NCBI RefSeq assembly: GCF_964213995.1
Contig: NC_135804.1
Coordinates: 68,634,001 to 68,698,000 of the forward strand
From: Mustelus asterias
Lineage: Eukaryota
DNA length: 64,000 nucleotides
Direction: 5' to 3'
The notes under the pieces are model-generated. The model ran no database searches and was not told where the DNA came from. It worked only from the letters and a program-made list of their open reading frames with translations. A program made the translations under genes and the position numbers. This document shows positions 18,396 to 61,779 of the stretch, one piece after another (position 1 is the stretch's first letter; the number at the start of each line of letters is the position of its first letter).

Positions 18396-18576
18396 TGGTC
18401 ATGATGTGGAGATGCCGGCGTTGGACTGGGGTAAACACAGTAAGGAGTCTAAGAACACCAGGTTAAAGTCCAACAGGTTTATTTGGTAGCAAACGCCATC
18501 CAACAGTTTGCTACCAGTGGCGTTTGCTACCAAATAAACCAGTTGGACTTTAACCTGGTGTTGTTAGACTCCTTAC
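18396..18576. mobile_element. PLE family A palindromic mini-insertion
   Basis: Inverted arms; CCTTACAATGG duplicated at 18385-18395 and 18571-18581; inserted in an older SINE-like repeat (~18255-18625). Confidence 0.85.
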
Positions 18577-18625
18577 AATGGCCTTACAAGCCATTCAGTT
18601 CAAGGGGAAATTAGGGTTGGGCAAT

Positions 18626-18945
18626 AGAATCAAAGAATCCCATCAGTGCAGAAGGAGGCCATTTGGCCCATCCAGTCTGCACTAACAGCAATCCTACCCA
18701 GCCCCTATCCCCGTAACCCCACATATTTACCCTGCTAACCTACACATGGTGGGATGCCAAGGGGCAATTTAGTATGGCCAAGCAGCCTAACCTGCACATC
18801 TTGGACTGTGGAAGGAAACTGGAGCACTGGAGGACACCCACGCAGACACGGGGAGAATGTGCAATCTCCACACAGATAGTCACCGGAGGCCAGAATTGAA
18901 CCCGGTCTCTGACGCAATGAGGTAGCAGTGCTAACCGTGTCACCT
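18626..18945 (-). mobile_element. HE1-type SINE
   Basis: HE1 core and tail on the minus strand. Confidence 0.85.
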
Positions 18946-19235
18946 CTAAACAAATACAGGCCTGGACAGTGACACCCACATCCCAGAAATGAATATTTTA
19001 TATGTATTGCAGTGGAGAGGGAAATGTTTCATAAATGTGGATTGATGTCACCCATAAAACGCAGAGATTATGCCATTGAAAGAAATTTTCACCATCTATG
19101 AGGTTTCTGATATTACATCAGTCCACAATCTGAAAACACAGAATTTCAAGAGTTTGCAAAATCCCTTTGGATTTCTTTGCACAAACTCGCCAGGATTCCC
19201 ATGGGTTACTGGAGAAACAGAGAAATGTGTCATGG

Positions 19236-19400
19236 AATCATAGAATCCCTACAGTGCAGAAGGACGCCATTCGGCCCATCGAGTCTGCACCGACCAGAAT
19301 CCCACCGGGGCCTATTCCCGCAAGCCCTCATAATTACCGGCTAATCCTCCTGACACTATGGTTAATTTAGCATGGCCAATCAACCTAACTCGCACATCTT
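19236..19400 (-). mobile_element. HE1-type SINE 3' fragment
   Basis: ATAGAATCCCTACAGTGCAGAAGGA-GCCATTCGGCCCATCGAGTC tail. Confidence 0.8.
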
Positions 19401-19839
19401 TATCCAAAATGTAAAGTCATTACTGCATAGAAAACAGATTTTCAACTCGGCTCTTGGGTTATCTGTTCTCAGCCCTTCAGAGTGGATTGGTTCCACGGGG
19501 GTTCCTCATGGAATCCAATGGAAGGTGGTTTTGGGCATATATTTCTGCCGTTCCACATACATGGATGCCACAGGTCAACGATGCAGATTTACAGAAAGAA
19601 CATGTTAGAGAAGAAACTTACCAAAGTAACCCAGAGAAGCCGTTTGTATCAGCGATAAATCAAAATTTGGAGCTCACCCGAGAACTTAAAGTGTCCAGCA
19701 GGAATTAGGCACAGTAAAAAAAACAAAATATCTTTGATCCCAGTAAAACAATTGTGAGAAAATCAGCGTTCAAAGAGGTCCGAATTCATTAAAAATGAAA
19801 GAAGACACCGAAGCAGGAACAAAAGGTGGTGAGACGACC

Positions 19840-20730
19840 CAAAGATTGCTGGAGTTGCGGATAGCGATGAACATTCTCAGAGAATACAGCAGGATATAGA
19901 TAGGCTGGAAAATTGGGCGGAGAAATGGCAGATGGAATTTAATCCAGATATATGCGAAGTGATGCATTTTGGTAGATCTAATGCAGGGGGGAGCTACACA
20001 ATAAATGGCAGAACCATCAGGAGTATAGACACACAGAGGGATCTGGGTGTGCAAGTGCACAGATCCTTAAAGGTGGCAGCACAGGTGGAAAAGGTAATGA
20101 AGAAGGCATATGGCATGTTTGCCTTTATTGGACGGGGCATAGAGTATAAAAGTTGGCATATGATGTTGCAGTTATATAGAACGTTGGTTGGGTCACATTT
20201 GGAAAACTGCGTCCAGTTCTGGTCGCCACACTACCAGAAGGACGTGGAGGCTTTGGAAAGAGTGCAGAAAAGATTTACCAGGGTGTTGCCTGGTATGGAG
20301 GGTATTAGTTATGAGAGATTGAGTAAACTCGGGTTGTTCTCCCTGGAAAGACAGAGGATGAGGGGCGACCTAATAGAGGTGTAGAAAATTATGAAGGGCA
20401 TAGATAGGGTGAACAGTTGGAAGCTTTTTCCCAGGTCAGAAATGACAAACACAAGGGGTCACAAGTTCAAGGTAAGGGGAGTAAGGTTCAATATGCAGGG
20501 GACGTATTTTACACAGAGGGTGGTGGTGGCCTGGAATTCACTACCAAGCAAGGTGGTTGAGGCATACACGCTAGGATCATTTAAGACTTATCTAGATAGC
20601 CACATGAACAGACTGGGAATAGAGGGATACAAACGGATGGTCTAATTAGGAACACATGATCGGTGCAGGCTTGGAGGGCCGAAGGGCCTGTTCCTGAGCT
20701 TTATTGTTCTTTGTTCTTTGTTTGTTCTTG
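19840..20730 (+). mobile_element. CR1 LINE 3' fragment
   Basis: ORFs 19932-20384 and 20391-20645 (QRDLGVQVHRSLK, CVQFWSPHY, RGDLIEV, WNSLP); (TTGTTCT)n tail. Confidence 0.92.
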
Positions 20731-20890
20731 AGACAAAGTAAAACAACGTTTACTTAATAAGGCAAAAATACAATATGTTTTCCATGAGACTACAAAACAC
20801 TGAAATGCTCCGAATGGTTGGGGAACTGAAGCTTTGGGTTTCTAGAAACATCATGGAGCCTTGAAGTTTGAACAGAGACTTGGTGGCAGA

Positions 20891-21132
20891 TGTAATGGGG
20901 ATGTTGGGCTAAATTCTATCAAGGAGTAACTGTAACAGTCTGTGATGTCATGGAAGGAAGTGACATACACGCGATCTGGGTCTTGAGAAAGGGAAGTATT
21001 GTCAGAAGCTAAGGTTAAAGTGTTCTTATAACAGTAAATATGCTAAAATAAAGTTAGAGTGTTTTGCAGCCAACAGTCTTTGAAAAAATATTAAAATTTC
21101 TCCAACCGAGCAACATAATAATGTACTAACAA
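20891..21132 (+). repeat. Putative 3' LTR of the Gypsy remnant
   Basis: Starts TGTAATG after a purine-rich stretch; direct repeat of 15100-15340. Confidence 0.65.
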
Positions 21133-21154
21133 TGGTGTTGGCGGAGTGACTGGC

Positions 21155-21332
21155 AGTCCACAGATATGCGGGTCATATGGTTTGGCCAAGCTAAATTGCC
21201 CCTTAGTGTCAGGGGGACCAACAGGGTAAATACATGGAGTTGTGGGGATGGGGCCTGGGTGGGATTGCGGTCGGTGTAGACTCGATGGGCCGAATAGCAT
21301 CTTTCTGCACTGTAGGATTCTATGATTCTATG
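21155..21332 (+). mobile_element. HE1-type SINE 3' half
   Basis: CAGTCCACAGATATGCGGG...CTGCACTGTAGGATTCTATGATTCTATG. Confidence 0.8.
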
Positions 21333-21694
21333 AATACAGCCATACTGTCGTTCTGGCAGAGGCCAGCAGGTACCGCTCACATGTAGTCTATTCCAATTTT
21401 ATACTCTATCAAGCTGTGATACATGTTGAAATGGGAAGCCTCCCTTCTCCGAGTCTTCGCATTACAGCCTGGTGCATGGCCAGCGCACCTCGTATTTCAT
21501 TGGGTATGCTTGTGTCCAATAGCGTGGGATATATTTTGCCATTTTTTTTCTGTAAGCGTGGTTTCACTCTCGCTTTTGAATGATATCAGTTTTATGAGCT
21601 GTCGCTTGCATTGGTCATTTCCAGAGAAGCTGCACCTGCAGGAAAACTGGACTTTTTATGCTAAAATGACAGAGTTGTTCGCATTTTCATCCAC

Positions 21695-22027
21695 AGAACC
21701 ATAGAATCCCGAGAGTGCAGAAGGAGGCCATTCGGCCCATTGATTTTGCACCGATTCTCCGACAGAGTATCCCACCCAGGCCCTATCCCCGTAGCTCCTC
21801 ATATTTACCCCACTAATGTCCTTAACTTGTACATCTTGGGACACTAAGGGGCGATTTAGCATGGCCAATCAACTCAACCCGCATATCTTTGGCCAATTGA
21901 TGCAAACCAGAGCACCAGGAGGAAACCCACGTGGAAAAAGTGCAAACTCCACACAGTCACCCAAGGCTGGAATTAAAACCCAGTCCTTGGGGCAGTGAGG
22001 CAACAATGCTAACTACCGTGCCACCCA
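21695..22027 (-). mobile_element. HE1-type SINE
   Basis: HE1 head, core and tail on the minus strand, diverged. Confidence 0.8.
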
Positions 22028-23613
22028 TTGGCACTGAAGGGAGGGACAAACGATATACATCAGAGTGTGAATAATAGCAGAGAGAGGAACGGATGATGAA
22101 AGTGGTCTCAGATTATCATGCAGAGTGTGAAATACAAGTAAGAAAGGACAAGGGTAGAAATTGTTAAGAAAACATGTGCGGCACCTCCGCCAGAGCGTCC
22201 ATTTCAACACTATAATGATTTTGCCCCTGCCTCTGTTACGTACCGGGAACACAATGTGCTGGCGGACTCGGCACCATCAGTCACAGCCTCCCGCAATGTG
22301 CTCTTCACAACCTTCTGCAGAAGAGAGGGAATATGTTCGTGACAACTTTCGTAAGTGTTGTGTCCATGTTCTTTTCAAAGTTGATTAATTTTTATGCTGT
22401 CCGTTAGATGCGTTAGAATGCGTTAGAAGGAAGTACAGTTTGTAATAGTGCTGAGAACGTGAGGGCTAGTTTGGACAGCAGGAAAAGGCAGTGGGATGAA
22501 GTCCACTGCAGAGACTGGAGGGCAGTGAAGGGTACGGTGCAATATGGGGAGCCAGGTTGGAGGTGATGGAGGTGTGAACAGAGAGAAATAGAGCAGTATT
22601 CTTATTTTAGCCACTCTGTTGTTTAAACGCTCATCCAAGTCATAGTCGCTTCCAGGTCTGGCTATTTTAACATATTCCTGACCAGCTTCCCAGTCATCCA
22701 AAACTATCCTATGTTTCAGATCGCACCAAGTCCCCTTCACCAATCATGCCTGCACTCAGCAGCCTCCACTGGCTCCGGTTAAAATAGGCAACATCGCCAA
22801 GACATTTGTGTTATCCATGTTTTCAAATCCTCCTTCGCCCCATTTTTCATAACGTCCCCTCGGCCCACAACCTGCACTCTTTTCTCTGTATCATTCCTCG
22901 TTTAATTTTTTCAATACTGGCAGCCGTGCCTTCAGCTGCCGTGTTCACAATCGTTCGAAGGCGCTACCTAAATATTTCCACCCCTCCATCACAGACTCGT
23001 TTTTTAAGACCTTTCTTGCAGTCTAACATTCAGATGGAACTTTTGGTCATCTCTGTGTGATCTTATGCGATTCATTGTCAAGGTTTTGGGTTATAATAGT
23101 CCAGTGAAGCACTTTGGAGCGTTTTATGGCTTTAACAGCGCTACATAGATGCAAACGATTGTCACTGGTCGTGGTGGAGGCTGTAGTATTGAGAACTCTG
23201 TTGAGGTCTTTGAACAATTTGTGGCATTGCAGCCAGTCTGACGATCTAAGCTTCTAGCAGTAACCTCCACTATAACCTCTTCCCAGTGACAGAGGACGGG
23301 GAAGAATATATCTCGGTTGCGCATCATTTGGATCAGGTGCCCGTAAAGCGCACCAGACAATCTGCGGATCCAACGAGCTGGCCCAGGAGCCATGTCTTTA
23401 TCCAGAAATCTTTCATTTTGTTGCGGACACATTGAAATAACTCCACGGAGGCAAAAGTCCCGTCACCAAGCTTCTTTTTTAACCAACTATAATATATAGA
23501 GAGCGCGAGCACTCCGGGTAGCTTTCTGCGACGGCAGGCTGAGAGACTGTCACACCTGCTTTAAATAGAGAGCTTGAGGCTCCCTGATTGAGCCATCAAT
23601 TAGGACTCATCAA

Positions 23614-24252
23614 ATAAACAAAATCAACTTAACTTAGGGACAACTCAAAAAGGGCAGTTCCCTGAAAGGAAGGGAACTCCTGAACCAAAAAATAAAGTGG
23701 GAAGGAAACTTAAAACATTAAATTAAAATTAAATTAAAGGGGTAGGACTCATCAAGTATTTCTTTTAGTGTTCCAACCAAATACACGAACTCAAATTAAC
23801 TTAGGGACAAATTAAAAGGGGCAGCTCCCTAAAAGAAGAGGGAACAGTCCGAACCAAAAAGCAAAGTAGAAAGGAAACTTAAAACATCAAACTAAAATGT
23901 GATTATCCGGTCGATAATAAAATGTCGGCGACAGCACAAGTCAGGTATCGTTTTTCATACCACCCAAATAAACGACACAGCACAAGTCAGGTATCTCTTT
24001 CCAGGTACCAACTTAATAAACAAACTCAAATTAACTGACGGACAAATTAAAAGGGGCAGCTCCCCAAAAGGAATTGGAACAGCCCGAACCAAAACTAAAT
24101 CACAAAGGAAACTTAAAACATCAAATCATAATGTGGTTATCAGGGTTGATAATGCACCCCAGCCCCTGCGGTACCCAGCGGGCGTGGAAGGCGTCAACTG
24201 CGCCCGTGGACACCTCGTGCTCCCTCTCCAGGGACACCTGGCCGCGAATATA
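23614..24252 (-). mobile_element. Cluster of 3-4 5'-truncated Tx1/L1-type 3' ends
   Basis: Each piece matches the 3' UTR (and 23.9/24.13-24.25 kb also the ORF2 end) of the 47.7-58.6 kb array unit; TSD-like repeats between pieces. Confidence 0.8.
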
Positions 24253-26884
24253 ACAGCGCAAGTCAGGTAGTTCATACTCTAGCAAGCAATGTCATTAGCC
24301 ATCATCATCACACACATGCAGCTCCCAATTAGGAAGAGCTAGTTATGTTTAATAATGTCAGTGGAACCATATTTGATCCCCTCTGCAAATAGATGTCCGT
24401 CAATCGAATGGCTGGCCATCCGGGAAAGGAACCTTTGTGCCTTCGACTTGAGTGGCGACAAGGAGCTCACACAAAACTAAAGCCTATATTGATAGTGATA
24501 AAGCCACTCTACTGGCTGGAATCACAACAAACATCAAACAAAATAATTGCGATTATTGGAGGATAATCATCGACAGTCTGGGTCATCTCAGGGGAGTATA
24601 TTTCCACGATGAGTGAGATCTGAAGTGGGGCTGAAAGTTGCAGAATGTTTAATTCCAACTTCGATTCCTCATCAGTAAGACCTGCAGGCCGAGGCGCATC
24701 AGTAACACAAGTGCCACCCGTGACCCCTTCTAACCGAGGAGAGGATGTGAACCTAAACATGATATTCAGTGGCATTGCCATCGCCGAATGTCTCATTGTA
24801 CATATGACGGACAGATTAGGCTATGGGTCTCCGGTGGCCAATATCCGCATTGCTACAGCTGCAAGAGCACTCAACAACTTCAACAATACCCATAAAATAA
24901 CATTCCCTTTGATGAGTAACCCATCCATTAGCTTTAACATTCACACCGTTCACTGCCTGCGTACTCTGACGACAGTGGCACAAAACTGATGATCCTATTA
25001 GTTATCCATTTTTAGAAGATTCTGGTTCCACTGTTGTCCAGGCCACGTTACATTAGATATTTTTTCGATGAGGAGGAGGGTGTGTGTTGGCAATGACAAG
25101 CCATCTGTCGACAGACTGTTTGGGACAGGCAAATGCAAGTTGATAAATCGCCATGGCAACTTCAATCACAACTTCATGTTCCAGGGTACAGATGCTCGAG
25201 GAAAGATGGAACAGGAGGTAAGAGAGGAAGGGGGTTGCACTTTTGCTGAGGGAAAGCATCACGGCCATACTGAGAGGGGATATATCCGAGGGTTCGGCCA
25301 TTGAGTCTATATGGTTAGAACTGAGAAATAAGAAGGGGGAAATCACTTTGATAGGGTTGTACTATAGGCCCCCAAATTGTCAGTGGGAAAATGAGGAGCA
25401 AATATGTAAGGAGATTACAGATAGCTCCAAGAAAAATAGGGTGGTAATAGTTGGAGATTTTAATTTTCCCAACATTGACTGGGACAGCCATAGTATTAGA
25501 GGGTTGGATAGAGAGAAATGTGTTGAGTGTATTCAGGTGGAATTTCTCATTCAGTATGTGGATGGCCCGACTAGAAAGGGGGCAAAACCTGACCTCCTCT
25601 TGGGAGATAAGGAAGGGCAGGTGACAGAAGTGTTAGTGAGGGATCACTTTGGGACCAGTTACCATAATTCTATTAGTTTTAACATAGCTATGGAGAATGA
25701 TAGGTCTGTCCCAAAAGTTAATATTCTAAATTGGGGCAAGGCCAATTTTGATGGTATCAGGCAGGAACTTTCAAAAGTTAATTGGGGGAGTCTGTGGGAA
25801 GGAAAAGGGACGACCAGGGTTCTCCCTCTGGACACTTTTGTATCTCTCCCTTCTCACCTTAGACCTATGCCCTCTAGTTTTAGACTCCCCTACCTTTCCT
25901 CTTAGAGTGAAGGGCAAGGCTGGCAGAAGTCGGGAACCCTGGATGACTCGGGATATTGAGGCCCTGGTCAAGAAGAAGAAAGAGGCACATGACGTGTATA
26001 GGCAGCTGGGATCAAGTGAATCTCTTGAAGAGAATTGGGGGTGTAGGAGTAGAGTTAAGAAAGAAATCATGAGGGCAAAAAGGGGACGCAAAATTGTTTT
26101 GGCAGATAAAGCAAAGGAGAATCCAAAGAGCTTCTACAAATACATAAAGGGCAAAAGAGTAACAAGGGAGAGAGGATGGCCTCTTAAGGATCAAGGTAAT
26201 CTATGTGCGGGTCCACAAGAGATGGGTGAGATCCTCAATGAATATTTTTCATCTGTATTTACTGTTGAGAAAAGCATGGATGTTGGGAAACTTGGAAAAT
26301 AAATATTGATGTCTTGAAGAGTGTACCTATTACAGAGAAGGAGGTGCTGGAAGTCTTAAAGCGCATCAAGGTAGATAAATCTGCGGGACCTGATGAGGTA
26401 TATCCCAGGACATTGTGGGAGGCTAGGGAGGAAATTGCGGGTCCCCTACCCGAGATATTGGAATTATCGATAGTCACGGGTGAGGTGCCTGAAGATTGGA
26501 GAGTGGCAAATGTTGTGCCTTTGTTTAAAAAGGGCTGGAGGAAAAAGTCTGGGAACTACAGGCCAGCGAGCCTCACATCTGTGGTGGGTAAATTGTTGGA
26601 AGATATTTTGAGAGACAGGATCTACAGGCATTTAGAGATGCAAAGACTGATTCGGGACAGTCAGCATGGCTTTGTGAGTGGAAAATCATGTCTCACAAAT
26701 GTAATTGAGTTTTTTGAAGGGGTAACCAAGAAGGTAGATGAGGGCAGTGCAGTCGATGTTGTCTACATGGTCTTTAGCAAGGCCTTTGACAAGATACCGC
26801 ATGGTAGGTTGTTGCATAAAGTTAAATCTCACGGGATCCAGGGTGAGGTACCTAAATGGATACAAAATTGGCTTCTTGACAGAA

Positions 26885-27135
26885 CACAGTAAGAAGTTTC
26901 ACAACACCAGGTTAAAGTCCAACAGGTTTATTTGGTAGCAAATGCCACTGCCTTCCAGAACAGGCTGTCCCTTCATCAGGTGGAGTGGAGAAATGCATTT
27001 CTCCACTCCACCTGACAAAGGGACAGCCTGTTCCGAAAGCTAGTGGCATTTGCTACCAAATAAACCTGTTGGACTTTAACCTGGTGTTGTTAATCTTCAT
27101 ACTGTGTTTACCCCAGTCCAACGCCGGCATCTCCA
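26885..27135. mobile_element. PLE family A near-perfect palindrome inserted in CR1
   Basis: 13-bp TSD CTTCTTGACAGAA at 26872-26884 and 27136-27148; centre AAATGCATTT at 26991-27000; hammerhead copies with helix II GGGACA/UGUUCC, each with a core mutation. Confidence 0.9.
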
Positions 27136-27610
27136 CTTCTTGACAGAAGCCAGAGGGTGGTTGTAGAGAGTTGTTTTTCAAACTGGAGGCCTGCGACCAG
27201 TGGTGTGCCTCAGGGATCAGTGCTGGGCCCACTGTTACTTGTCATTTATATTAATGATTTGGATGAGAATATAGGGGGCATGGTTAATAAGTTTGCAGGT
27301 GACACCAAGATTGGTGGCATGGTGGACAGTGAGGAAGGTTATTGCCAATTGCAGTGGGATCTTGATCAATTGGGCCAATGGGCTGACGAATGGCAGATGG
27401 AGTTTAATTTAGACAAATGCGAGGTAATGCATTTTGGTAGATTGAACCAGGGTAGGACTTACTCAGTTAATTTTACGGCGTTGGGGAGAGTTACAGAACA
27501 AAGAGATCTAGGGGTACATGTTCATAGCTCCTTGAAAGTGGAGTCACAGGTGGACAGAATGGTGAAGAAGGCATTCGACATGCTTGGTTTCATTGGTCAG
27601 AACATTGAAT

Positions 27611-27694
27611 TGTGAATTGTGTCCCAGAACATTGTGTGGCTTTTGCTACCAAATAAACCTGTTGGACTTTAACCTGGTGTTGTTAAACTTCTTA
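27611..27694 (+). mobile_element. PLE family A mini-insertion in CR1
   Basis: 13-bp TSD CAGAACATTGAAT at 27598-27610 and 27695-27707. Confidence 0.85.
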
Positions 27695-28142
27695 CAGAAC
27701 ATTGAATACAGGAGTTGGGACGTCTTGTTAAAGTTGTACAAGACAATGGTAAGGCCATACTTGGAATACTGTGTGCAATTCTGGTCACCCTATTATAGAA
27801 AGGATATTATTAAACTAGAAAGAGTGCCGTGAAGATTTACTAGAATGCGACCGGAACTTGATGGATTGAGTTATAAGGAGAGGCTGAATAGACTGGGACT
27901 TTTTCTTTGGAGCGTAGGAGGCTGAGGGATGACGTAATCGAGGTCTATAAAATAATGAGGGCATAGACAAGGTAGATAGTCAATATCTTTTCCGAAAGGT
28001 AGGGGAGTCTATAACTAGAGGGCATAGGCTTAAGGTGAGAGGGGAGAGATACAAAAGTGTCCAGAGGGACAATTGTTTCACACAGAGGGTGATGAGTGTC
28101 TGGAACAAGCTGCCAGAGGTAGTAGTAGAGGCGGGTACAATT

Positions 28143-29492
28143 AAGACCATAAGCCATAAGACATAGGAGCGGAAGTAAGGCCATTCGGCCCATCGAGTCC
28201 ACTCCACCATTCAATCATGGTTGATTTCAACTCCATTTACCCGCTCTCTCCCCATAGCCCTTAATTCCTCGAGAAATCAAGAATTTATCAATTTCTGTCT
28301 TGAAGACGCTCAACGTCTCGGCCTCCACAGCCCTCTGTGGCAATGAATTCCACAGACCCACCACTCTCTGGCTGAAGAAATTTCTCCTCATCTCTGTTCT
28401 AAAGTGACTCCCTTTTATTCTAAGGCTGTGCCCCCGCGTCCTAGTCTCCCCTGTTAATGGAAACAACTTCCCTACGTCCATCCTATCTAAGCCGTTCATT
28501 ATCTTGTAAGTTTCTATCAGATCTCCCCTCAACCTCCTAAACTCCAATGAATATAATCCCACGATCCTCAGACGTTCATCGTATGTCAGGCCTACCATTC
28601 CTGGGATCATCCGTGTGAATCTCCGCTGGACCCGCTCCAGTGCCAGTGTGTCCTTCCTGAGGTGTGGGGCCCAAAATTGCTCACAGTACTCCAAATGGGG
28701 CCTAACCAGTGCTTTATAAAGCCTCAGAAGTACATCCCTGCTTTTGTATTCCAAGCCTCTTGAGATAAATGACAACATTACATTTGCTTTCCTAATTACG
28801 GACTCAACCTGCAAGTTTACCTTTAGAGAATCCTGGACTAGGACTCCCAAGTCCCTTTGCACTTTAGCATTATGAATTTTGTCACCGTTTAGAAAATAGT
28901 CCATGCCTCTATTCTTTTTTCCAAAGTGTACGACCTCGCACTTGCCCACGTTGAATTTCATCAGCCACTTCTTGGACCACTCTCCTAAACTGTCTAAATC
29001 TTTCTGCAGCCTCCCCACCTCCTCAATACTACCTGCCCCTCCACCTATCTTTGTATCATCGGCAAACTTGGCCAGAATGCTCCCAGTCCCGTCATCTAGA
29101 TCGTTAATATATAAAGAGAACAGCTGTGGCCCCAACACTGAACCCTGCGGGACACCACTTGTCACCGGTTGCCATTCTGAGAAAGAACCTTTTATCCCAA
29201 CTCTCTGCCTTCTGTCTGACAGCCAATCGTCAATCCATGTTAGTACCTTGCCTCGAATACCATGGGCCCTTATTTTACTCAGCAGTCTCCCGTGAGGCAC
29301 CTTGTCAAAGGCCTTTTGGAAGTCAAGATAGATAACATCCATTGGCTCTCCTTGGTCTAACCTATTTGTTATCTCTTCAAAGAACTCTAACAGGTTTGTC
29401 AGGCACGACCTCCCCTTACTAAATCCATGCTGACTTGTCTTAATCCGACCCTGCACTTCCAAGAATTTAGAAATCTCATCCTTAACGATGGA
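28143..29492 (-). mobile_element. Young 5'-truncated CR1 LINE nested antisense in CR1; uninterrupted 411-codon RT frame
   Basis: ORF 28227-29462 with [32 protein letters not shown] and the CR1 C-terminus; intact 3' tail. Confidence 0.95.
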
Positions 29493-30747
29493 TTTTATCT
29501 TTTAAAAAGCATCTAGATATTTACATGGGTACGATGGGTATAGAGGGATATGGGCCAAAGGCAGGCAATTGGGATTAGTTTAGGGGTTTTTAAATAAAAG
29601 GGCGGCATGGACAAGTTGGGCCGAAGGGCCTGTTTCCATGCTGTAAGCCTCTATGACTCTAACTCACATTGAACAATATGGCCGTTTGCATATTATCATA
29701 TGCAGTCTGTATAATGAAACTTTGAGGCTGGAGAAATACATTTCTTAAGCGAAAGTGTCACGGCAACCAATGTGTTAAAAATGAACCCTCCCGAACCTCG
29801 GGTAAGGAAGCGAAATCATAGCCGAGTGCTGAAAACTGATCGGGCGGAGCGGGGCGAGGGCGGGGTGCCTGGAAATGTCATGGAGAATGCTCAGCAAATG
29901 CAATCTTCTCGGATTTCAGTTATTTCTTGGAAGGAGGATGGGTTTCGGACTGATCCTGTTTTTATTTTCTCTATTACGGTGTTTGGATGCAATACTCATC
30001 CTTCTGCTCAAGTTAGCATGGGAATCCAACGTCCATATAGACAGATTGAAGGCCGGGTGCCCATAATAAATCAGCACCTTAGTGGCCGTTCTTATCGAAG
30101 CAAAACGTGCTTTAAAGGTTTCTTCCACCTCGATCCCTGCTGCAGCTGTCGAGCACAGCACCCGACGCATTAAGGCAGGCACAAATAATCGGTTGAAATG
30201 AACGACTTCATCATATATTTTCCGTCATTTCCTTTCTTCAGCCAGCAGGGCTGCAGAACTTCGTGGCTTCTCCCCAAGCCCCATCCGGTCCAACACCATC
30301 TACCACCACCGCCCCCCCCCCTCCTCCCGCCCCCCGTCGCTGCCCACCGTCATCAGCGACACACACATACATCATTTTCTTGATATGCCCTCCTTGCCGC
30401 GTTTTATCCTAATAGATCAGAGCAAATGCTGGACAATTAATCAATTTTTACCTTGGTAGATTGAAGACTTTGCATCCTCCAGCTCCTCACAAACAAGCAG
30501 TCATTTCATGGACTGTCGCTCTGCTTGATCAAATTGTTCAGAATTTTGGCCAGTGTGGCAATTCCGTGCATTACTGTTCTCGGAATCATTTTCACAGGTG
30601 CCCGGTCTCACAATACTTTGTTTTCTCATTGAATCGCGGAGTTATGTGGCTTTGTATTGTATCATTGTTCTTGACAGATATTACCTGACCCCCCCCCCCC
30701 CCCCCCCACTCCTGCAATATGATGTCATTTTTATATTTTTCCCATAG

Positions 30748-32345: not shown

Positions 32346-32386
32346 CAGTGTGAAACTACCAATCTTTCAATTCTTTATTGTTCTAG

Positions 32387-33410: not shown

Positions 33411-33483
33411 CCATTACTTACTCACATTGGGTTTTAAAAAGGCATATGACTCATATTTTACATGTGTTTCATTAATATCTCAG

Positions 33484-33710: not shown

Positions 33711-33744
33711 AATCAGTATTGTTCAAATTACAAATAGTAATTAC

Positions 33745-47737: not shown

Positions 47738-50700
47738 ATTTGGCGAGGTTGCCCTCTTTTTAGGTCAAACCAAATAAACAAACTCAAATTAAGTCAGAAC
47801 AAAGTAAAAGGGTCAGCTCCCCAAAAAGGAGGGGGAACAGCCCGAACAGAAATCAAAGTACAAAGGAAACTTAAAAACATCAAATTAAAATGTGATTATT
47901 AGTGTCGATAACGCACCCCAACATCTGCGGTGCCCGGCGGGCACGGGAGGCATCAACCGCACCCGTGGACACCACATGCTCCTTCTCCAGGGACACCTGG
48001 TCGCGGACGTAGCCGCGGTAGAGGGGAAGACAGACAGGATGGACGGCCCCCTCGATCGCCCGCTGCCTGGACCGGTAAATGGCGCGTTTCGCCAGGCCCA
48101 GGAGCAGGTTCACGAGTAGGTCGCCATCCCAACCCTCCCCTCTCTGCACCGGGTGTCCATAGATCAGGAGCGTGGGACTGAAGTGCAGACAAAACATCAA
48201 TAAAAGGTTCTTCAGGAAAACATAAAGGGAGTGCAGCCTAAGCCATAAAACAGAGGCATGGTCCACGGACTCCACAAGGCCGCAGAAAGGGCAGTCTTCG
48301 GAGCCCGTGAACCAGTGAATTCTACGGTTGTGCGGAACTGCTGCATGCATCAACCTCCAACCCAGGTCCCCGACGTAATTGGGGGAGATCCCTTCGTAGA
48401 GGGACCTCCAGCGGGGATTTGGCGAGGTTGCCCTCTTTATAGGTCAAACCGAATAAACAAACTCAGGTTAAGTCAGGACAAAGTAAAAGGGGCAGCTCCC
48501 CAAAAAGGAGGGGGAACAGCCTGAAGAGAAATCAAAGTACAAAGGAAACTTAAAAACATCAAATTAAAATGTGATTATTAGGGTCAATAATGCACCCAAA
48601 CCCCTGCGGTGCCCAGCGGGCGCGGAAAGCATCAACCGCGCCCGTGGACACCGCATGCTCCCTCTCCAGGGACACCTGGCCGTGAACGTAGCCGCGGTAG
48701 AGGGGCAGACAGTCAGGATGGATGGCCCACTCGATCGCCCGCTGCCTGGACCGGTAAATGGCGCATTTCGCCAGTCCCAGGAGCAGGTTCATGAAGAGGT
48801 CGCCATCCCGACACTCCCCTCTCTGCACCGGGTGTCTGTAGATCAGGAGCGTGGGACTGAAGTGCAAACAAAACATCAATAAAAGGTTCTTCAGGAAAAC
48901 ATAAAGGGAGTGCAGCCTAAGACACACAACATAGACATGGTCCACGGACTCCACAAGGCCGCAGAAAGGGCAGTCTTCGGAGCCCGTGAACCAGTGAATC
49001 CTACTGTTGTGCGGAACTGCTGCATGCATCACCCTCCACCCCAGGTCCCCGACGTAATTGGGAGAGATCCCTTCGGAGAGGGACATCCAGCGGGGATTTG
49101 GTGAGGTTGCCCTCTTTTTAGGTCAAACCAAATAAACAACCTCAGGTTAGGTCAGGACAAAGTAAAAGGGTCAGCTCCCCAAAAAGGAGGGGGAACAGCC
49201 CGAACAGAAATCAAAGTACAAAGGAAACTTAAAAACATCAAATTAAAATGTGATTATTAGGGTCAATAATGCACCACAACCCCTGCGGTGCCCAGCGGGT
49301 GCGGAAACGTAAACCGCGTCCGTGGACACCGCATGCTCCCTCTCCAGGGACACCTGGCCGCGAACGTAGCCGCGGGAGAGGGGCAAGCAGTCAGGATGGA
49401 CGGCCCCCTCGATCGCCCGCAGCCTGGACCGGTAAATGGCGCGTGTCGCCAGGCCGAGGAGCAGGCTCACGAGGAGGTCGCCATCCCGCCCTCCCCTCTC
49501 CGCATCGGGTGTCTGTATATCAGGAACGTGGGACTGAAATGCAGACAAATCATCAATAAAAGGTTCTTCAGGAAAACATAAAGGGAGTGCAGCCGAAGAC
49601 ACACAACATAGACATGGTCCATGGAGTCTACAAGGCCACAGAAAGGGCAGTCTTCGGAGCCCGTGAACCAGTGAATCCACGGTTGTGCGGAATGGCTGCA
49701 TACATCACCCTCCACCCCAGGTCCCCGACGTAATTGTGGGAGATCCCCCCATAGAGGGACCTCCAGCGGGGATTTGGCGAGGTTGCCCTCTTTTTAGGTC
49801 AAACCAAATAAACAAACTCAGATTAAATCAGGACAAAGTAAAAGGGGCAGTCCTCAAAAAGGAGGGGGAACAGCCCAAACAGAAATCAAAGTACAATGGA
49901 AACTTAAAAACATCAAATTAAAATGTGATTATTCGGGTCAATAATACACCCCAACCACTGCGGTGCCCAGCGGGCGTGGAAGGCGTCAACCCTGCCCGTG
50001 TACACGGCATGCTCCCTCTCCAGGGACACCTGGCCGCGAACGTAGCCGTGGTAGAGGGGCAGGCAGTCAGGATGGACGGCCCCCTCGATCGCCCGCTGCC
50101 TGGACTGGAAAATGGCGCATTTCGCCAGGCCCAGGAGCAGGTTCACGAGGAGGTCGCCATCCCGAAACTGCCCTCTCCGCAACGGGTGTCAGTAGATCAG
50201 GAGCGTGGGACTGAAGTGCAGACAAAACATCAATCAAAGGTTCTTCAGGAAAATATGAACGGAGTGCAGCCTAAGCCATAAAACATAGACATGGTCCACG
50301 GACTCCACATGGCCGCAGAAAGGGCAGTCTTCGGAGCCCGTGAACCAGTGAATCCTACGGTTGTGCGGAACTGCTGCATGCATCACCCTCCACCCCAGGT
50401 CCCCGACGTAATTGGGGGAGATCCCTCCGTAGAGAGACCTCCAGCGGGGATTTGGCAAGGTTGCCCTCTTTTTAGGTCAAACCAAATAAACAAACTCAAA
50501 TTAAATCAGGACAAAGTAAAAGGGGCAGCTCCCAAAAAAGGAGGGGGAACAGCCCGAACAGAAATCAAAGTACAAAGGAAACTTAAAAACAGCAAATTAA
50601 AATGTGATTATTAGGGTCAATAATGCACCCCAACCCCTGCGGTGCCCAGCGGGCGCAGAAGGCGTCAACCGCACCCGTGGACACCGCATGCTCCCTCTCC

Positions 50701-53700
50701 AGGGACACCTGGCCGTGAACGTAGCCACGGGAGAGGGTCAGGCAGTCAGGATGGACGGCCTCCTCGATCGCCCGCTGCCTGGACCGGTAAATGGCGCGTT
50801 TCGCCAGGCCCAGGAGCAGGTTCACGAGGAGGTCGCCATCCCGACCCTCCCCTCTCCTCACCGGGTGTCCGTAGATCAGGAGCGTGGGACTGAAGTGCAG
50901 ACAAAACATCAATAAAATGTTCTTTAGGAAAACATAAAGGGAGTGCAGCCTAAGACACACAACATAGACATGGTCCACGGACTCCACAAGGCTGCAGAAA
51001 GGGCAGACTTCGGAGCCCGTGAACCAGTGGATTCTACGGTTGTGCGGAACTGCTGCATGCATCAACCTCCACCCCAGGACCCCAACGTAATTGGGGGAGA
51101 TCCCTTCGTAGAGGGACCGCCAGTGGGGATTTGGCGAGGTTGCCCTCTTTATAGGTCAAACCAAATAAACAAACTCAGGTTAAGTCAGGACAAAGTAAAA
51201 GGGGCAGCTCCCCAAAAAGGAGGGGGAACAGCCCGAACAGAAATCAAAGTACAAAGGAAACTTAAAAACATCAAATTAAAATGTGATTATTAGGGTCAAT
51301 AATGCACCCAAACCCCTGCGGTGCCCAGCGGGCGCGGAAAGCATCAACCGCGCACGTGGACACCGCATGCTCCCTCTCCAGGGACACCTGGCCGCGAACG
51401 TAGCCGCGGTAGAGGGGCAAGCAGTCAGGATGGATGGCCCGCTCGATCGCCCGCTGCCTGGACCGGTAAATGGCACGTTTCGCCAGTCCCAGGAGCAGGT
51501 TCACGAGGAGGTCGCCATCCCGCCCTCCCCTCTCCGCATCGGGTGTCCGTATATCAGGAACGTGGGACTGAAATGCAGACAAATCATCAATAAAAGGTTC
51601 TTCAGGAAAACATAAAGGGAGTGCAGCCTAAGACACACAACATAGACATGGTACATGGAGTCTACAAGGCCACAGAAAGGGCAGTCTTCGGAGCCCGTGA
51701 ACCAGTGAATCCTACGGTTGTGCAGAACGGCTGCATACATCACCCTCCACCCCAGGTCCCCGACGTAATTGTGGGAGATCCCCCCATAGAGGGACCTCCA
51801 GCGGGGATTTGGTGAGGTTGCCCTCTTTTTAGGTCAAACCAAATAAACAAACTCAGATTAAATCAGGACAAAGTAAAAGGGGCAGCTCCTCAAAAAGGAG
51901 GGGGAACAGCCCAAACAGAAATCAAAGTACAAAGGAAACTTAAAAACATCAAGTTAAAATGTGATTATTCGGGTCAATAATGCACCCCAACCAGTGCGGT
52001 GCCCAGCGGGCGCGGAAGGCGTCAACCCTGCCCGTGTACACGGCATGCTCCATCTCCAGGGACACCTGGCCGCGAACGTAGCCGTGGTAGAGGGGCAGGC
52101 AGTAAGGATGGACGGCCCCCTCGATCGCCCGCTGCCTGGACCGGTAAATGGCGCATTTCGCCAGGCCCAGGAGCAGGTTCACGAGGAGGTCGCCATCCCG
52201 AAACTCCCCTCTCCGCAGCGGGTGTCCGTAGATCAGGAGCGTGGGACTGAAGTGCAGACAAAACATCAATAAAAGGTTATTCAGGAAAATATGAAGGGAG
52301 TGCAGCCTAAGCCATAAAACATAGACATGGTCCACGGACTCCACATGGCCGCACAAAGGGCAGTCTTCGGAGCCCGTGAACCAGTGAATCCTACGGTTGT
52401 GCGGAACTGCTGCATGCATCACCCTCCACCCCAGGTCCCCGACGTAATTGGGGGAGATCCCTCCGTAGAGAGACCTCCAGCGGGGATTTGGCAAGGTTGC
52501 CCTCTTTTTAGGTCAAACCAAATAAACAAACTCAAATTAAATCAGGACAAAGTAAAAGGGGCAGCTCCCAAAAAAGGAGGGGGAACAGCCCGAACAGAAA
52601 TCAAAGTACAAAGGAAACTTAAAAACATCAAATTAAAATGTGATTATTAGGGTCAATAATGCACCCCAACCCCTGCGGTGCCCAGCGGGTGCGGAAGGCA
52701 TCATCCGCGCCCGTGGACACCGCATGCTCCCTCTCCAGGGACACCTGGCTTCGAACGTAGCCGCGGTAGAGGGGCAGACAGGCAGGATGGACGGCCCCCT
52801 CGATCGCCCGCTGCCTGGACCAGTAAATGGCACGTTTTGCCAGTCCCAGGAGCAGGTTCACGAGGAGGTCGTCATCCTGTCCCTCCCCTCTCCGCACCGG
52901 GTGTCCGTAGATCAGGAGCGTGGGACTGAAGTGCAGACAAAACATCAATAAAAGGTTCTTCAGGAAAACATAAAGGGAGTGCAGCCTAAGACACACAACA
53001 TAGACATGGTCCACGGACTCCACAAGGCCACAGAAAGGGCAGTCTTCGGAGCCCGTGAACCAGTGAATCCTACGGTTGTGCGGAACTGCTGCATGCATCA
53101 CCCTCCACACTATGTCCCCGACGTAATTGGGGGCGATCCCTCCATAGAGGAACCTCCAGCGGAGATTTGGCGAGGTTGCCCTCTTTTTAGGTCAAACCAA
53201 ATAAACAAACTCAGATTAAATCAGGACAAAGTAAAAGGGGCAGCTCCCAAAAAGGGAGGGGGAACAGACCGAACAGAAATCAAAGTACAAAGGAAACTTA
53301 AAAACAGCAAATTAAAATGTGATTATTAGGGTCAATAATGCACCCCAACCCCTGCGGTGCCCAGCGGGCGCGGAAGGCGTCAACCGCACCTGTGGACGCC
53401 GCATGCTCCCTCTCCAGGGACACCTGGCCGCGAACGTAGCCGCGGGAGAGGGGCAGACAGTCAAGATGGCCGGCCCCCTCGATCGCCCGCTGCCGGGACC
53501 GGTAAATGGCGCATTTTGCCAGGCCCAGGAGCAGGTTCACGAGGAGGTCGTCATCCCGTCCCTCCCCTCTCCGCACCGGGTGTCCGTAGATCAGGAGCGT
53601 GGGACTGAAGTGCAGACAAAAGATCAATAAAAGGTTCTTCAGGAAAACATAAAGTGAGTGCAGACTAAGGCACACAGCATAGACATGGTCCACGGACTCC

Positions 53701-56700
53701 ACAAAGCCGCAGAAAGGGCAGTCTTCGGAGCCCGTGAACCAGTGAATTCTACGGTTGTGCGGAACTGCTGCATGCATCACCCTCCACCCCAGGTCCCCGA
53801 CGTAATTGGGGGATATCCCTTTCTAGAGGGACCTCCAGCGGGGATTTGGCGAGGTTGCCCTTTTTTAAGGTCAAACCAAATAAACAAACTCAGGTTAAGT
53901 CAGGACAAAGTGAAAGGGGCAGCTCCCCAAAAAGGAGGGGGAACAGCCAGAACAGAGATCAAAGTACAAAGGAAACTTAAAAACATTAAATTCAAATGTG
54001 ATTATTCGGGTCAATAAGGCACCACAAACCCCTACGGTGCCCAGCGGGCGCGGAAAGCGTCAACCGCGCCCGTGGACACCGCATGCTCCCTCTCCAGGGA
54101 CCCCTGGCCGTGAATGTAGCCGCGGGAGAGGGGCAGGCAGTCAGGATGGACGGCCCGCTCGATCGCCCGCTGCCTGGACCGGTAAATGGCGCATTTCGCC
54201 AGGCCCAGGAGCAGGTTCACGACGAGGTCGCCATCCCGACCCTCCCCTCTCCGCACCGGGTGTCCGGAGATCAGGAGCGTGGGACTGAAGTGCAGACAAA
54301 AGATCAATAAAAGGTTCTTCAGGAAAACTTAAAGGGAGTGCAGCCTAAGACACACAACATAGACATGGTCCACGGACTCCACAAAGCCGCAGAAAGGGCA
54401 GTCTTCGGAGCCCGTGAACCAGTGAATCCTACGGTTCTGCGGAACTGCTGCATGCATCAACCTCCACCCCAGGTCCCCGACGTAATTGGGGGAGATCCCT
54501 CCGTAGAGAGACCTCCAGCGGGGATTTGGCGAGGTTGCCCTCTTTTTAGGTCAAACCAAATAAACAAACTCAAATTAAATCAGGCCAAAGTAAAAGGGGC
54601 AGCTCCCCAAAAAGGAGGGGGAACAGCCCGAACAGAAATCAAAGTACAAAGGAAACTTAAAAACATCAAATTAAAATGTGATTATTAGGGCCAATAATGC
54701 ACCCCAACCCCTGCGGTGCCCAGCGGGCACGGAAGGCATCAACCCCGCCCGTGGACACGGCATGCTCCCTCTCCAGGGACACCTGGCCGCGAACGTAGCC
54801 GCGGTAGAGGGGCAGACAGTCAGGATGGCCGGCCCGCTCAACCGCCCACTGCTTGGACCGGTAAATGGCGCGTTTCGCCAGACCCAGGGGCAGGTTCACA
54901 AGGAGGTCGCCATCCCGACCCTCCCCTGTCCGCACCGGGTGTCCATAGATCAGGAGCGTGGGACTGAAATGCAGACAAAACATCAATAAAAGTTTCTTCA
55001 GGAAAACATAAAGGGAGTGCAGCCTAAGACACACAACATAGACATGTTCCACGGACTCGAGAAGGCCACAGACAGGGAAGTCTTCGGAGCCCGTGAACCA
55101 GTGAATCCTATGGTTGCGCGGAACTGCTGCATACATCACCCTCCACCCCAGGTCCCCGATGTAGAGGGACCTCCAGCGGGGATTTGGCGATGTTGCCCTC
55201 TTTTTAGGTCAAACCAAATAAACAAACTCAGATTAAGTCAGGACAAAGTAAAAGGGGCAGCTCCCCAAAAAGGAGGGGTAACAGCTCGAACAGAAATCAA
55301 AGTGCAAAGGAAACTTAAAAACATCAAATTAAAATGTGATTATTAGGGTCAATAATGCACCCCAACCCGTGCGGTGCCAAGCGGGCGCGCAAGGCGTCAA
55401 CCGCGCCCGTGGACACCGCATGCTCCCTCTCCAGGGACACCTGGCCGACAACGTAGCCGCGGTAGAGGGGAAGACAGTCAGGATGGATGGCCCGCTCGAC
55501 CGCCCGCTGCCTGGACCGGTAAATGGCGCGTTTTGCCATGCCCAGGAGCAGGTTCACGAGGAGGTCGCCATCCCGACCCACCCCTCTCCGCACCGGGTGT
55601 CCGGAGATCAGGAGCGTGGGACATGAAGTGCAGACAAAACATCAATAAAAGGTTCTTCAGGAAAACATAAAGGGAGTGCAGCCTAAGACACACAAAATAG
55701 ACATGGTCCACGGACTCCACAAGGCCGCAGAAAGGGCAGTCTTCAGAGCCCGTGAACCAGTGAATCCTACGGTTGTGCGGAATTGCTGCATACATCACCC
55801 TGCACCCCAGGCCCCCGACGTAATAGGGGGAGATGCCCCCGTAGATGGACCTCCAGCGGGGACTTGGCGAGGTTGCCCTCTTTTTAGGTCAAACCAAATA
55901 AACAAACTCAGATTAGATCAGGACAAAGTAAAAGGGGCAGCTCCCCAAAAAGGAGGGGGGACAGCCCGAACAGAAATCAAAGTACAAAGGAAACTTAGAA
56001 ATATCAAATTAAAATGTGATTATTAGGGTCAATAATGCACCCCAACCCCTGCGGTGCCCAGCGGGCGCGGAAGGCATCAACCACGCCCGTGGACACCGCA
56101 TGCTCCCTCTCCAGGGACATCTGGCCGTGACCGTAGCCGCGGTTGAGGGGAAGACAGTCAGGATGGACGGCCCCCTCGATCGCCCGCTGCCTGGACCGGT
56201 AAATGGCGCATCTCGGCAGGCCCAGGAGCAGGTTCACGAGGAGGTCGCCATCCCGACCCTCCCCTCTCCGCACCGGGTGTCCGTAGATCAGGAGCGTGGG
56301 ACTGAAGTGCAGACAAAACATCAATAAAAGGTTCTTCAGGAAAACATAAAGGGAGTGCAGCCTACGACACACAACATAGACATGGTCCACGGACTCCACA
56401 AGTCCGCAGAAAGGGCAGTCTTCGGAGCCCGTGAACCAGTGAATCCTACGGTTGTGCGGAACTGCTGCATGCATCACCCTCCACCCCAGGTCCCCGACGT
56501 AATTGGGGGAGATCCCTCCGTAGAGGGACATCCAGCGGGGTTTTGGCGAGGTTGCCCTCTTTTTAGGTCAAACCAAATAAACAAACTCAGATTAAATCAG
56601 GATAAAGTAAAAGGGTCAGCTCCCCAAAAAGGAGGGGGAACAGCCCGAACAGAAATCAAAGTACAAAGGAAACTTAAAAACATCAAATTAAAATGTGATT

Positions 56701-58591
56701 ATTAGGGTCAATAATGCTCCCCTACCCCTGCGGTGCCCAGCGGGCGCGGAAGGCGTCAACCACGCCCGTGGACACCGCATGCTCCCTCTCCAGGGACATC
56801 TGGCCGCGACCGTAGCCGCGGTTGAGGGGAAGACAGTCAGGATGGACGGCCCCCTCGATCGCCCGCTGCCTGGACCGGTAAATGGCGCATCTCGGCAGGC
56901 CCAGGAGCAGGTTCACGAGGAGGTCGCCATCCCGACCCTCCCCTCTCCGCACCGGGTGTCCGTAGATCAGGAGCGTGGGACTGAAGTGCAGACAAAACAT
57001 CAATAAAAGGTTCTTTAGGAAAACATAAAGGGAGTGCAGCCTACGACACACAACATAGACATGGTCCACGGACTCCACAAGTCCGCAGAAAGGACAGTCT
57101 TCGGAGCCCGTGAACCTGTGAATCCTACGGTTGTGCGGAACTGCTGCATGCATCACCCTCCACCGCAGGTCCCCGACGTAATTGGGGGAGATCCCTCCGT
57201 AGAGGGCCATCCAGCGGGGTTTTGGCGAGGTTGCCCTCTTTTCAGGTCAAACCAAATAAACAAACTCAGATAAAATCAGGATAAAGTAAAAGGGTCAGCT
57301 CCCCAAAAAGGAGGGGGGACAGCCCGAACAGAAATCAAAGTGCAAAGGAAACTTAAAAACATCAAATTAAAATGTGATTATTAGGGTCAATAATGCACCC
57401 CTACCCCTGCGGTGCCCAGCGGGCGCAGAAGGCATCAACCGCGCCCGTGGACACCGCATGCTTCCTCTCCAGGGACACCTGGCCGCGAACGTAGCCGCGG
57501 TAGAGGGTCAGACAGTCAGGATGGATGGCCCCCTCGATCGCCCGCTGCCTGGACCGGTAAATGGCGCGTTTCGCCAGGCCCAGGAGCAGGTTCACGAGGA
57601 GGTCGCCATCCCGACCCTTCCCTCTCCGCACGGGTGTCCGTAGATCAGGAGCGTGGGACTGAAGTGCAGACAAAACATCAATAAAAGGTTCTTCAGGAAA
57701 ACATAAAGGGAGTGCAGCCTAAGACACACAACATAGACATGGTCCACGGACTCCACAAGGCCGCAGAAAGGGCTGTCTTCGGAGCCCGTGAACCAGTGAA
57801 TCCTACGGTTGTGCGGAACTGCTGCATGCATCACCCTCCACCCCAGCTCCCCGACGTAATTTGGGGAGATCTCTCCGTAGAGGGACCTCCAGCGGGGATT
57901 TGGCAAAGTTGCCCTCTTTTTAGGTCAAACCAAATAAACAAACTCAGATAAAATCAGGACAAAGTAAAAGGGGCAGCTCCCCAAAAAGGAGGGGGAATAG
58001 CCCGAACAGAAATCAAAGTACAAAGGAAACTTAAAAACATCAAATTAAAATGTGATTATTAGGGTCAATAATGCGCCCCAACCCCTGCGGTGCCCAGCGG
58101 GCGCGGAAGGCGTCAACCGCGCCCGTGGACACCGCATGCTCCCTCTCCAGGGACACCTGGCCGCGAACGTAGCCGCGGTAGAGGGGAAGAAAGTCAGGAT
58201 GAACGGCCCCCTCGATCTCCCGCTGCCTGGACCGGTATATGGCGCATTTCGCCAGGCCCAGGAGCAGGTTCACGAGGAGGTCGCCATCCCGACCCTCCCC
58301 TCTCCGCACCGGGTGTCCGGAGATCAGGAGCGTGGGACTGAAGTGCAGACAAAACATCAATAAAAGGTTCTTCAGGAAAACATAAAGGGAGTGCAGCCTC
58401 AGCCACACAACATAAACATGTTCCACGGACTCCACAAGGCCCCAGAAAGGGCAGTCTTCGGAGCCCGTGAACCATTGAATCCTCCGGTTGTGCGGAACTG
58501 CTGCATGCATCACCCTCCACCCCAGGTCCCCGACGTAATTGGGGGAGATCCCTCCGTCGAGGGACCTCCAGCGGGGATTTGGCGAGGTTGC
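47738..58591 (-). repeat. Tandem array: 16 x ~679-bp units, each the 3' end of a Tx1/L1-clade retrotransposon (zinc-knuckle ORF2 C-terminus + 3' UTR) plus a 15-bp spacer
   Basis: Frame ends (..NNHILI*) recur at 47880, 48559, ~49238, 49913, ~50592, 51271, 51949, 52628, ~53307, ~53986, 54666, 55324, 56004, ~56683, ~57362 and 58040. Protein PRWRSLY..DLGWRVMHAAVP..CPFCG..ESVDH...C.RL matches the Tx1-type zf-RVT region. Confidence 0.93.
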
Positions 58592-59240
58592 AACAAGGTC
58601 AACAGCTGAGTCGTTCTGACTGAATCCAAACTGAGTGTCAATGAGCAGGTTATTGCGAAGCAAGTGCGACTTGATAACACTGTTGATGTCCCCTTTCATC
58701 ACTTTGTTGATGATCAAGAACAGGCTAATGGGCTGGTAATTGGCTGGGTTAGATTTGTCCTTTTTTTCTGTACAGGACATATTTGGGTAATTTTCCATGC
58801 TATCGGGTGAATGTCAGTGTTGTGTCTTTACAGGAACAGCTTGGCTCGGGGCGCGGCAAGTTCTGGAGAACAAGTCCTCGGTACTATTGACGGAATATTG
58901 TCAGGGTCCAAAGCTTTTGCAGTATCCAGTGCCTTCGGTCGTTTCTTGATTTCAGATTAACTGGATAACACACAGCACTTCTGACTGAAGATTCGTGCAA
59001 ATACCTCAGCCTTAACACAGCGCTGATGTGCTGAGCTCCTCCATTATTGAGGATCGTGAAATTTGTGGAGCTTCCACCTCCAGTGAGTTGTTTAATTGGC
59101 CACCAACTTTCATGGCTGGATGTGGCAGGACTGCAGAGTTTAGATCGGACCAGTGGGTTGTGGAATTGCTCAGCTCTATTATTCCTTACGCTATTTGCCA
59201 CGCAGCTCGACTTGCGTTGTAGTTTCACCAAGTTGGAACC
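58592..59240 (-). mobile_element. Decayed CR1/L2-group LINE, apparent host of the array
   Basis: KKDKSNPANYQPISL...LIDTQFGFSQNDSAVDL; same type as the LINE at 8880-10025. Confidence 0.8.
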
Positions 59241-59506
59241 CCACTGCGGAGCTGCCTGTTTTTTGTGTGGCGGAAGTACCTTCAAGAGCGCAGATGTGTT
59301 AGGTTTAGTTGGACAAATAAACAGCAATCAGATTCCGGATAGATTGGAAACAGTGGGTGGAACTTCCGCCCTAAGATCACCCTGAACCAAACCTGGAAAT
59401 CCATTGACCGGTTGTTTCACCACCCCAGACCTTTCATAAAGCCTTTAGAAATTTTCACCAGCAATATTTTACAGCCCAGATACTAATAGTTGGGAGAGGG
59501 AATGTG

Positions 59507-59669
59507 GTAAGAAGTTTAACAACACCAGGTTAAAGTCCAACAGGTTTATTTGGTAGCAAAAGTGTGGCTTTTGCTACCAAATAAACCTGTTGGACTTTAA
59601 CCTGGTGTTGTTAAACTTCTTACTGTGTTTACCCCAGTCCAACGCCGGCATCTCCACATCATGACTACC
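59507..59669. mobile_element. PLE family A palindromic mini-insertion
   Basis: 12-bp TSD AGAGGGAATGTG at 59495-59506 and 59670-59681; ~55-bp perfect inverted arms. Confidence 0.9.
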
Positions 59670-61691: not shown

Positions 61692-61779
61692 AAAGCACAT
61701 TGTAGATTTTATTTCTTCAGGTTATGAATAGAGTACATAATCCGAGAAAGATGGGCACAAAAACGACAAATAATAGTTA

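Follow-up and report, generated by a model that had tools for sequence, protein, structure and literature searches.

A minority of Penelope-like element arms in the Mustelus asterias genome begin at a predicted hammerhead cut site

Several short copies of a Penelope-like element (PLE) in one stretch of Mustelus asterias DNA begin close to the point at which the element's hammerhead ribozyme is predicted to cut its own RNA, which raises the question of whether this coincidence exceeds chance and, if so, what it records. The stretch, hereafter the window, comprises 64,000 bases of contig NC_135804.1 (68,634,001 to 68,698,000, forward strand); coordinates below refer to it, and positions with a sign are counted from the predicted cut, +1 being the first base 3' of it. 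Comparing the window with itself revealed 8 insertions that together carry 13 arms of a single repeat end. Read in the sense direction, the arm layout is a hammerhead core, the predicted cut, a conserved core containing AATAAA and a CTTAC end fixed ∼62 bases past the predicted cut, with an optional tail of ∼35-40 bases that continues into the start of an ORF. On their 3' side arms stop at one of two fixed points, either the CTTAC end or the end of the tail, close to where the ORF starts. Evenly spaced stretches of the genome (120 stretches, 1.2 Mb, 101 arms; the even sample) gave a density of 101-102 arms per 1.2 Mb, from which we extrapolate a genome total of ∼300,000-310,000 arms. The window also holds a tandem array at 47738-58591 (∼16 units of ∼679 bases, 92-93% identity, with related pieces at 23600-24258) and a separate family of short palindromic repeats (61778-62004, 5008-5103 and 7106-7221, with a 186-base inverted repeat at 61817-62002).

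The short arms are tied to copies encoding a reverse transcriptase (RT) by the longest window arm, which carries the last 36 ORF codons, the end of the endonuclease region, on the minus strand at 1893-2000. This 36-codon ORF end is identical in at least 150 places in the 3.68-Gb genome, and at two of them open frames of 875 and 832 amino acids, both ending in the window's peptide, match Pfam RVT_1 (E 4e-09 and 2.4e-10, respectively); the first ∼55 residues of the 875-residue frame derive from an inverted arm. A C-X4-C-X2-C linker precedes the endonuclease region (locus L349), and by eye the C-terminal region contains a VVY...YIG-type (GIY-YIG-like) motif, for which we found neither a Pfam GIY-YIG match at E 0.01 nor a solved relative. 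A pLTR with hammerhead, an inverted 5'-truncated copy and a 30-40 base tail at one end are all present. Judged by these features the window arms belong to an endonuclease-bearing (EN+) PLE, which the Cys linker would place as Neptune-like. Neptune-type EN+ PLEs as described by Craig et al. 2021 (PMC8557442) likewise combine an RT, a CX2-5CxxC linker and, at the C terminus, a GIY-YIG-like region (a putative one in the present element) with an inverted 5'-truncated copy and a one-sided tail. In the two-arm insertion at 1588-2215 the ORF end lies on the longer arm and both arms retain an intact ribozyme of the C type defined below. Among two-arm insertions elsewhere (loci L121-L150) the tail is usually on one arm only, most target duplications measure 12-14 bases, and bases at the arm ends are often shared with the target.

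Pooling the even sample with the window yielded 46 intact copies that have helices I and II alongside the CUGANGA / GAAA / UH core, a core that the search for these copies required. Helix I pairs are kept at positions 1-4 in 45, 46, 46 and 25 of the 46 copies, respectively. The first of these pairs is C-G in 31 of 46, U-A in 14 and broken in one, the change from C-G to U-A being a compensatory swap in copies that are related and do not count as independent events; in 43 of the 46 copies helix II is 4-7 pairs long. Rfam hammerhead models gave no match at the gathering score, nor at E 10 on positions 5600-6020, as would be expected of a motif without helix III. We treat the motif as a minimal type I hammerhead, predicted to self-cleave after H17. 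The sequence just past the cut defines four subfamilies, labelled A to D for this analysis: A (GTGTGGC), B (GTGGC), C (ATGG) and D (a short form, GTGAT or GTGCT). Subfamily A, which accounts for 18 of 54 intact copies in the even sample, reads GAAAGCTT/GTGTGGC and has 2 extra bases after the cut relative to B. U, the weakest NUH base at a hammerhead cut position, is the base found there in A, the subfamily with the sharpest peak of 5' ends (see below), which counts against a cleavage origin of that peak. Intact minimal hammerheads in the window include, both on the plus strand, a B copy at 5850-5884 (cut predicted between 5881 and 5882) and a C copy at 2082-2118 with helix I CCAT/ATGG (cut predicted between 2114 and 2115).

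Base by base, three insertions in the window have ends at or next to the cut (target duplications are given on the plus strand). The head-to-head B insertion has a left arm at 18393-18498 (minus strand), with the 3' tail and the first ORF codons, that starts at +2, and a right arm at 18517-18576 (plus strand) that starts with GTGG at +1 and ends at the CTTAC end with no tail. GCCAT at 18495-18499 closes the left arm, 18498 (+2) being the last matching base; the junction filler between the arms (18499-18516) can be seen directly in the sequence to be partly templated from the element's own core, and the A at 18516 may be either filler or position -1. An 11-base target duplication flanks the insertion (18382-18392, second copy 18579-18589). 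The second is a single A arm on the plus strand at 27634-27695, inside a LINE-like repeat, which begins with GTGTGGC at the cut. It is preceded (27599-27633) by the target duplication 27599-27609, whose second copy is 27696-27706, and then by filler whose last bases (27626-27633) partly re-copy the target; since the TT before 27634 fits the element and the re-copied target alike, we place this arm end between -2 and +1. The third, also of subfamily A, pairs a left arm (59507-59561, minus strand) starting at +7/+8 with a tailed right arm (59562-59669, plus strand) starting exactly at +1 (GTGTGGC); one shared base joins the two arms, and a 12-base target duplication encloses them (59495-59506 and 59670-59681). 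A single arm on the minus strand at 16221-16340 provides the counter-example, truncated at -23 inside helix II.

The sequence-only reading of the window had reported homology starting near the cut in these three insertions, and its coordinates for the GCCAT stop and the GTGG start at 18517 are right. The starts that it gave as 27636 and 59564 belong to A copies, in which the cut lies 2 bases further 5', so that these arms in fact begin at 27634 and 59562, at +1. It had called the insertions independent, and each indeed has its own target duplication; it had also set aside the copy at 16221-16344 as truncated elsewhere, in agreement with the end at -23. Its description of these as the shortest copies does not strictly hold, since the 59507 left arm begins only at +7/+8 and among other arms starts occur up to +13. 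In the window 8 of 13 arms retain sequence upstream of -2 and 4 of 13 end at -2 to +2, compared with 7 of 101 ending at -3 to +1 in the even sample, a difference that marks the window as a favourable case.

For counts across the whole genome we used exact patterns that demanded non-element bases just upstream of a chosen position, and corrected each count by dividing it by the chance that a random flank passes the pattern. This correction presumes random flanks, which partner arms are not, and the fixed parts of the patterns span 21-32 bases, so the ratios are approximate. In subfamily A, 1,092 arms start exactly at +1. A pattern covering -2 to +1 gave 2,031 matches, and by eye 61 of 100 among the matches listed have a non-element base at -1. 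An upstream control pooled over -3 to -7 gave 283 matches in A, and a control at +5, with A and B pooled, gave 307. After correction A has 2,704 events per position at +1 against controls of 186 (-3 to -7) and 358, an excess of ∼15-fold over -3 to -7. For B (variants with A or G after GTGGC) there were 248 against 111 matches, 56 of 100 among the matches listed being non-A at -1, and the corrected values are 406 per position at +1 against 47 (∼9-fold). For C there were 1,238 against 558 matches, with corrected values of 648 against 235 per position, only ∼3-fold, and the peak is blurred towards -1/-2; the B and C values at +1 use by-eye fractions from 100 matches listed. By eye, 3 of 30 loci among the B matches were not true ends, and 5 of 30 among the C matches were intact copies with small indels. 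The cut-site footprint thus exceeds chance. Mapping 5' breakpoints and looking for a peak at position 1.1 had been proposed by the sequence-only reading, and run genome-wide it returned one, at ∼2,700 against ∼190 per position in A and ∼400 against 47 in B.

Downstream of the cut the profile is less abrupt. By eye, 100 matches listed of 3,355 were distributed as 28 at +1, 6 at +2, 16 at +3 (B's +1 included), 7 at +4, 1 at +5 and 17 at +6, the remainder being mostly at +7/+8, and many of these are partners of +1 arms. The profile as a whole, which drops off a cliff upstream of a sharp +1 peak and has a downstream shoulder (+2 to +8), fits a hard template end plus trimming. We consider it quite probable that a minority of arms begin at the predicted cut because the RT copied self-cleaved RNA and ran off its new 5' end. 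A fraction of the RNAs would self-cleave before or during insertion, minimal hammerheads being described as needing a dimer (PMC4209133), and both cut DNA ends would serve as primers for cDNA at sites inside the RNA, the scheme published for an anole element whose RT starts at two internal sites while both DNA strands are cut and extended (PMC11167929). A cDNA that reached the cleaved end, a 5'-OH by hammerhead chemistry, would be a run-off product, to be joined to the opposite cDNA or to the flank through 0-3 shared bases or a short fold-back filler, and trimming of the partner would produce the shoulder at +2 to +8. Head-to-head arms lie inside one target duplication.

We inspected loci of the A pattern at +1 individually. 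None of 30 sampled loci was an intact copy, 26 had a long inverted arm and 3 more an inverted piece consisting of tail only. A direct repeat of 8-16 bases flanks 28 of the 30 on both sides, which identifies these loci as separate insertions. At several, both arms are at +1 with few filler bases between them, and the filler often copies the arm's own end, as expected of fold-back synthesis. As a look at paired cleavage of both arms, we counted by eye partner arms that extended past the cut, which occurred in 0 of 26 two-arm A +1 loci, in 5 among 30 loci of the -2 to +1 pattern and in 4 among 30 control loci, counts that the patterns themselves bias.

Such joins could in principle create the peak unaided, if microhomology between head-to-head cDNAs favoured joining at +1 whatever the RNA end. 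Partner-arm AAA or AAG precedes 47 of 100 +1 junctions among the matches listed (by eye), the TTTG context recurs in B, and joins of palindromic form are frequent at +6 (17 of 100 among the matches listed). The shared stretch is just 0-2 bases, however, and G occurs also at +3, +5, +6, -4 and -8. The other 53 of 100 junctions among the matches listed have no partner AAA or AAG, so that one-base microhomology does not account for the peak; with all such cases removed ∼580 matches remain, ∼8-fold over background. Starts at +1 also occur in single-arm insertions (27634 and loci L147, L334 and L340). We therefore give this explanation almost no weight.

RNA structure offers another route to a fixed end, in which folded RNA near +1 makes the RT stall or is cut by a structure-specific nuclease, and no self-cleavage takes place. 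A hairpin is predicted directly after the cut, and arms also end at structure borders elsewhere, namely at -10, the base of helix II (4 of 101 evenly sampled arms), and at -35 to -40, just 3' of a 9-pair hairpin. Against this, an RT moving 3' to 5' would be expected to run into both the downstream hairpin and helix I at +4 or beyond, rather than at +1, and the peak is one base sharp with a cliff upstream. The peak also tracks the cut despite the 2-base insertion in A, falling at GTGTGGC in A and at GTGGC in B. The core of the downstream hairpin is predicted to begin at +3 in A (equivalent pairing would put it at +1 in B), yet in A the ends peak at +1 and so track the cut, not the base of the hairpin. 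A stall or nuclease cut is thus in our view unlikely, and run-off from a self-cleaved end remains the preferred reading of the peak.

A second hotspot of arm ends lies further upstream. An A pattern covering -33 to -44 gave 1,885 matches genome-wide, and by eye 100 matches listed of these fell at -37 (23), -36 (14), -35 (20) and -39 (9), with no more than 3 at any position from -40 to -44; -35 to -37 thus holds 57 of 100 among the matches listed, and -37 corresponds to ∼1,270 corrected events, half the height of +1. The even sample also shows a -35 to -37 cluster in A, B and D. Target duplications were present at 18 of 20 hand-picked hotspot loci, where partners often end nearby. At locus L352 an arm starting at -37 is joined, with repeated fold-back filler, to a partner ending near the cut, and may represent two differently processed RNAs. 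The hotspot is unrelated to the cut, so end hotspots can arise without cleavage. It lies just 3' of the 9-pair hairpin, which ends at -41, and at the 5' edge of helix I. A TATA-like word begins 29 bases upstream of -37 in 31 of 44 intact copies; we take this motif to resemble the TATA consensus and the -37 base to lie in an initiator-like context. We put the chance that -37 is a transcription start at about even and regard an RT stall as a serious candidate of somewhat lower probability. No consistent extra G, as a cap signature, was found at -37 in the 4 single-arm loci among the 20 hand-picked. On the antisense strand, A at -37 to -29 matches the splice-donor consensus perfectly, a match that C does not retain. 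A splice junction as the source of the cluster was ruled out, since the upstream sequences differ. In Drosophila Penelope an internal TATA-less promoter lies upstream of the ribozyme (PMC2377424, PMC4209133).

It could equally be asked whether +1 is itself a transcription start, or the first base of a short master copy that was amplified. G stands just before +1 in 27 of 61 exact A junctions among the matches listed (by eye), as a copied cap would leave, but G is rare before the ends of C arms and can stem from the partner arm or from an added base. The upstream flanks are all different, the peak is seen in three subfamilies, and the TATA-like motif points to -37, not to +1. We find a start or master copy at +1 very unlikely, and return to the cleaved template for the question of how often it is used.

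The even sample alone, with one arm at +1 and 3 at -1, holds too few for a per-base peak. Of its 101 arms, 40 reach more than 100 bases upstream, and most pass through an intact ribozyme; D, the oldest-looking short subfamily, has at most one arm near the cut. We estimate that roughly 5-10% of arms have a cut-defined end. Because most arms run through the ribozyme, cleavage does not set the usual template end; it would be optional and incomplete, and is not required for insertion. That cut-ended arms are a minority agrees with uncut RNA being the main in vitro substrate in PMC11167929. Of the proposal that the reverse-transcribed RNA was the self-cleaved 3' product, the peak at the cut stands, with cleavage itself inferred from it; the wider claim that cleavage defines the template's 5' end in general does not, given 7 of 101 arms, the ∼3-fold excess in C and the -35 to -37 hotspot.

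The element type and the ribozyme type were already known, and R2 is a precedent for ribozyme-set junctions (PMC3774820); we found no report of such a footprint for Penelope-like elements in the open-licence literature. The metazoan PLE pLTR hammerheads of Cervera and De la Pena 2014 (PMC4209133), of which thousands of copies are described in fish and amphibians, share with those studied here the core, a short helix I, a long helix II, the missing helix III, an extra base before G10.1 and a palindromic 15.2-16.2. That paper describes the activity in vitro as low and notes that evidence from in vivo work is absent; the present analysis maps where genomic copies have their 5' ends, with no such mapping in the parts of it drawn on. 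Poseidon PAc of Anolis carolinensis (Frangieh et al. 2024, PMC11167929) is alike in that the tail is bounded by a pair of internal RT start sites, cutting and extension involve both DNA strands, and the hammerhead lies upstream of the start sites. Its ribozyme is described as protein-assisted, with cleavage dispensable in vitro and no RNA-seq reads beginning or ending at the cut in the data presented there. Unlike in the account of PAc, in the present element the cut is where genomic copies accumulate, the tail comes before the ORF start and the endonuclease is preceded by the Cys linker. In R2 elements with HDV-like ribozymes (Eickbush et al. 2013, PMC3774820) genomic 5' junctions similarly mirror the ribozyme cut, with variable microhomology at the joins; there the cut is described as the normal 5' end of the element, whereas here it is internal to the pLTR and is attributed to a hammerhead, and the arms that it marks are short, lack the ORF and form a minority.

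As regards cutting by minimal PLE hammerheads, activity is reported as weak in vitro (PMC4209133), cleavage in the single element reconstituted so far as dispensable and unseen in RNA-seq (PMC11167929), and the function of the hammerhead in EN+ PLEs as still unclear (PMC8557442). It is possible, though we offer this tentatively, that the short arms record both RNA 5' ends, the pLTR start at -37 and the ribozyme cut at +1, and that within a dimeric particle of the element's own protein and RNA the hammerhead clips off a 37-base capped leader, so that the RNA would cease to be a message and become a template or be degraded, in which case the genome would serve as a germ-line read-out of the ribozyme for each subfamily. 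Counting 5' ends per subfamily is a cheap assay in any genome with such elements. A base-exact peak over thousands of germ-line insertions is indirect evidence of cutting, and of an RT using cleaved RNA, and as read from the genome sequence the footprint is likely a fossil record of RNA self-cutting in the living germ line.
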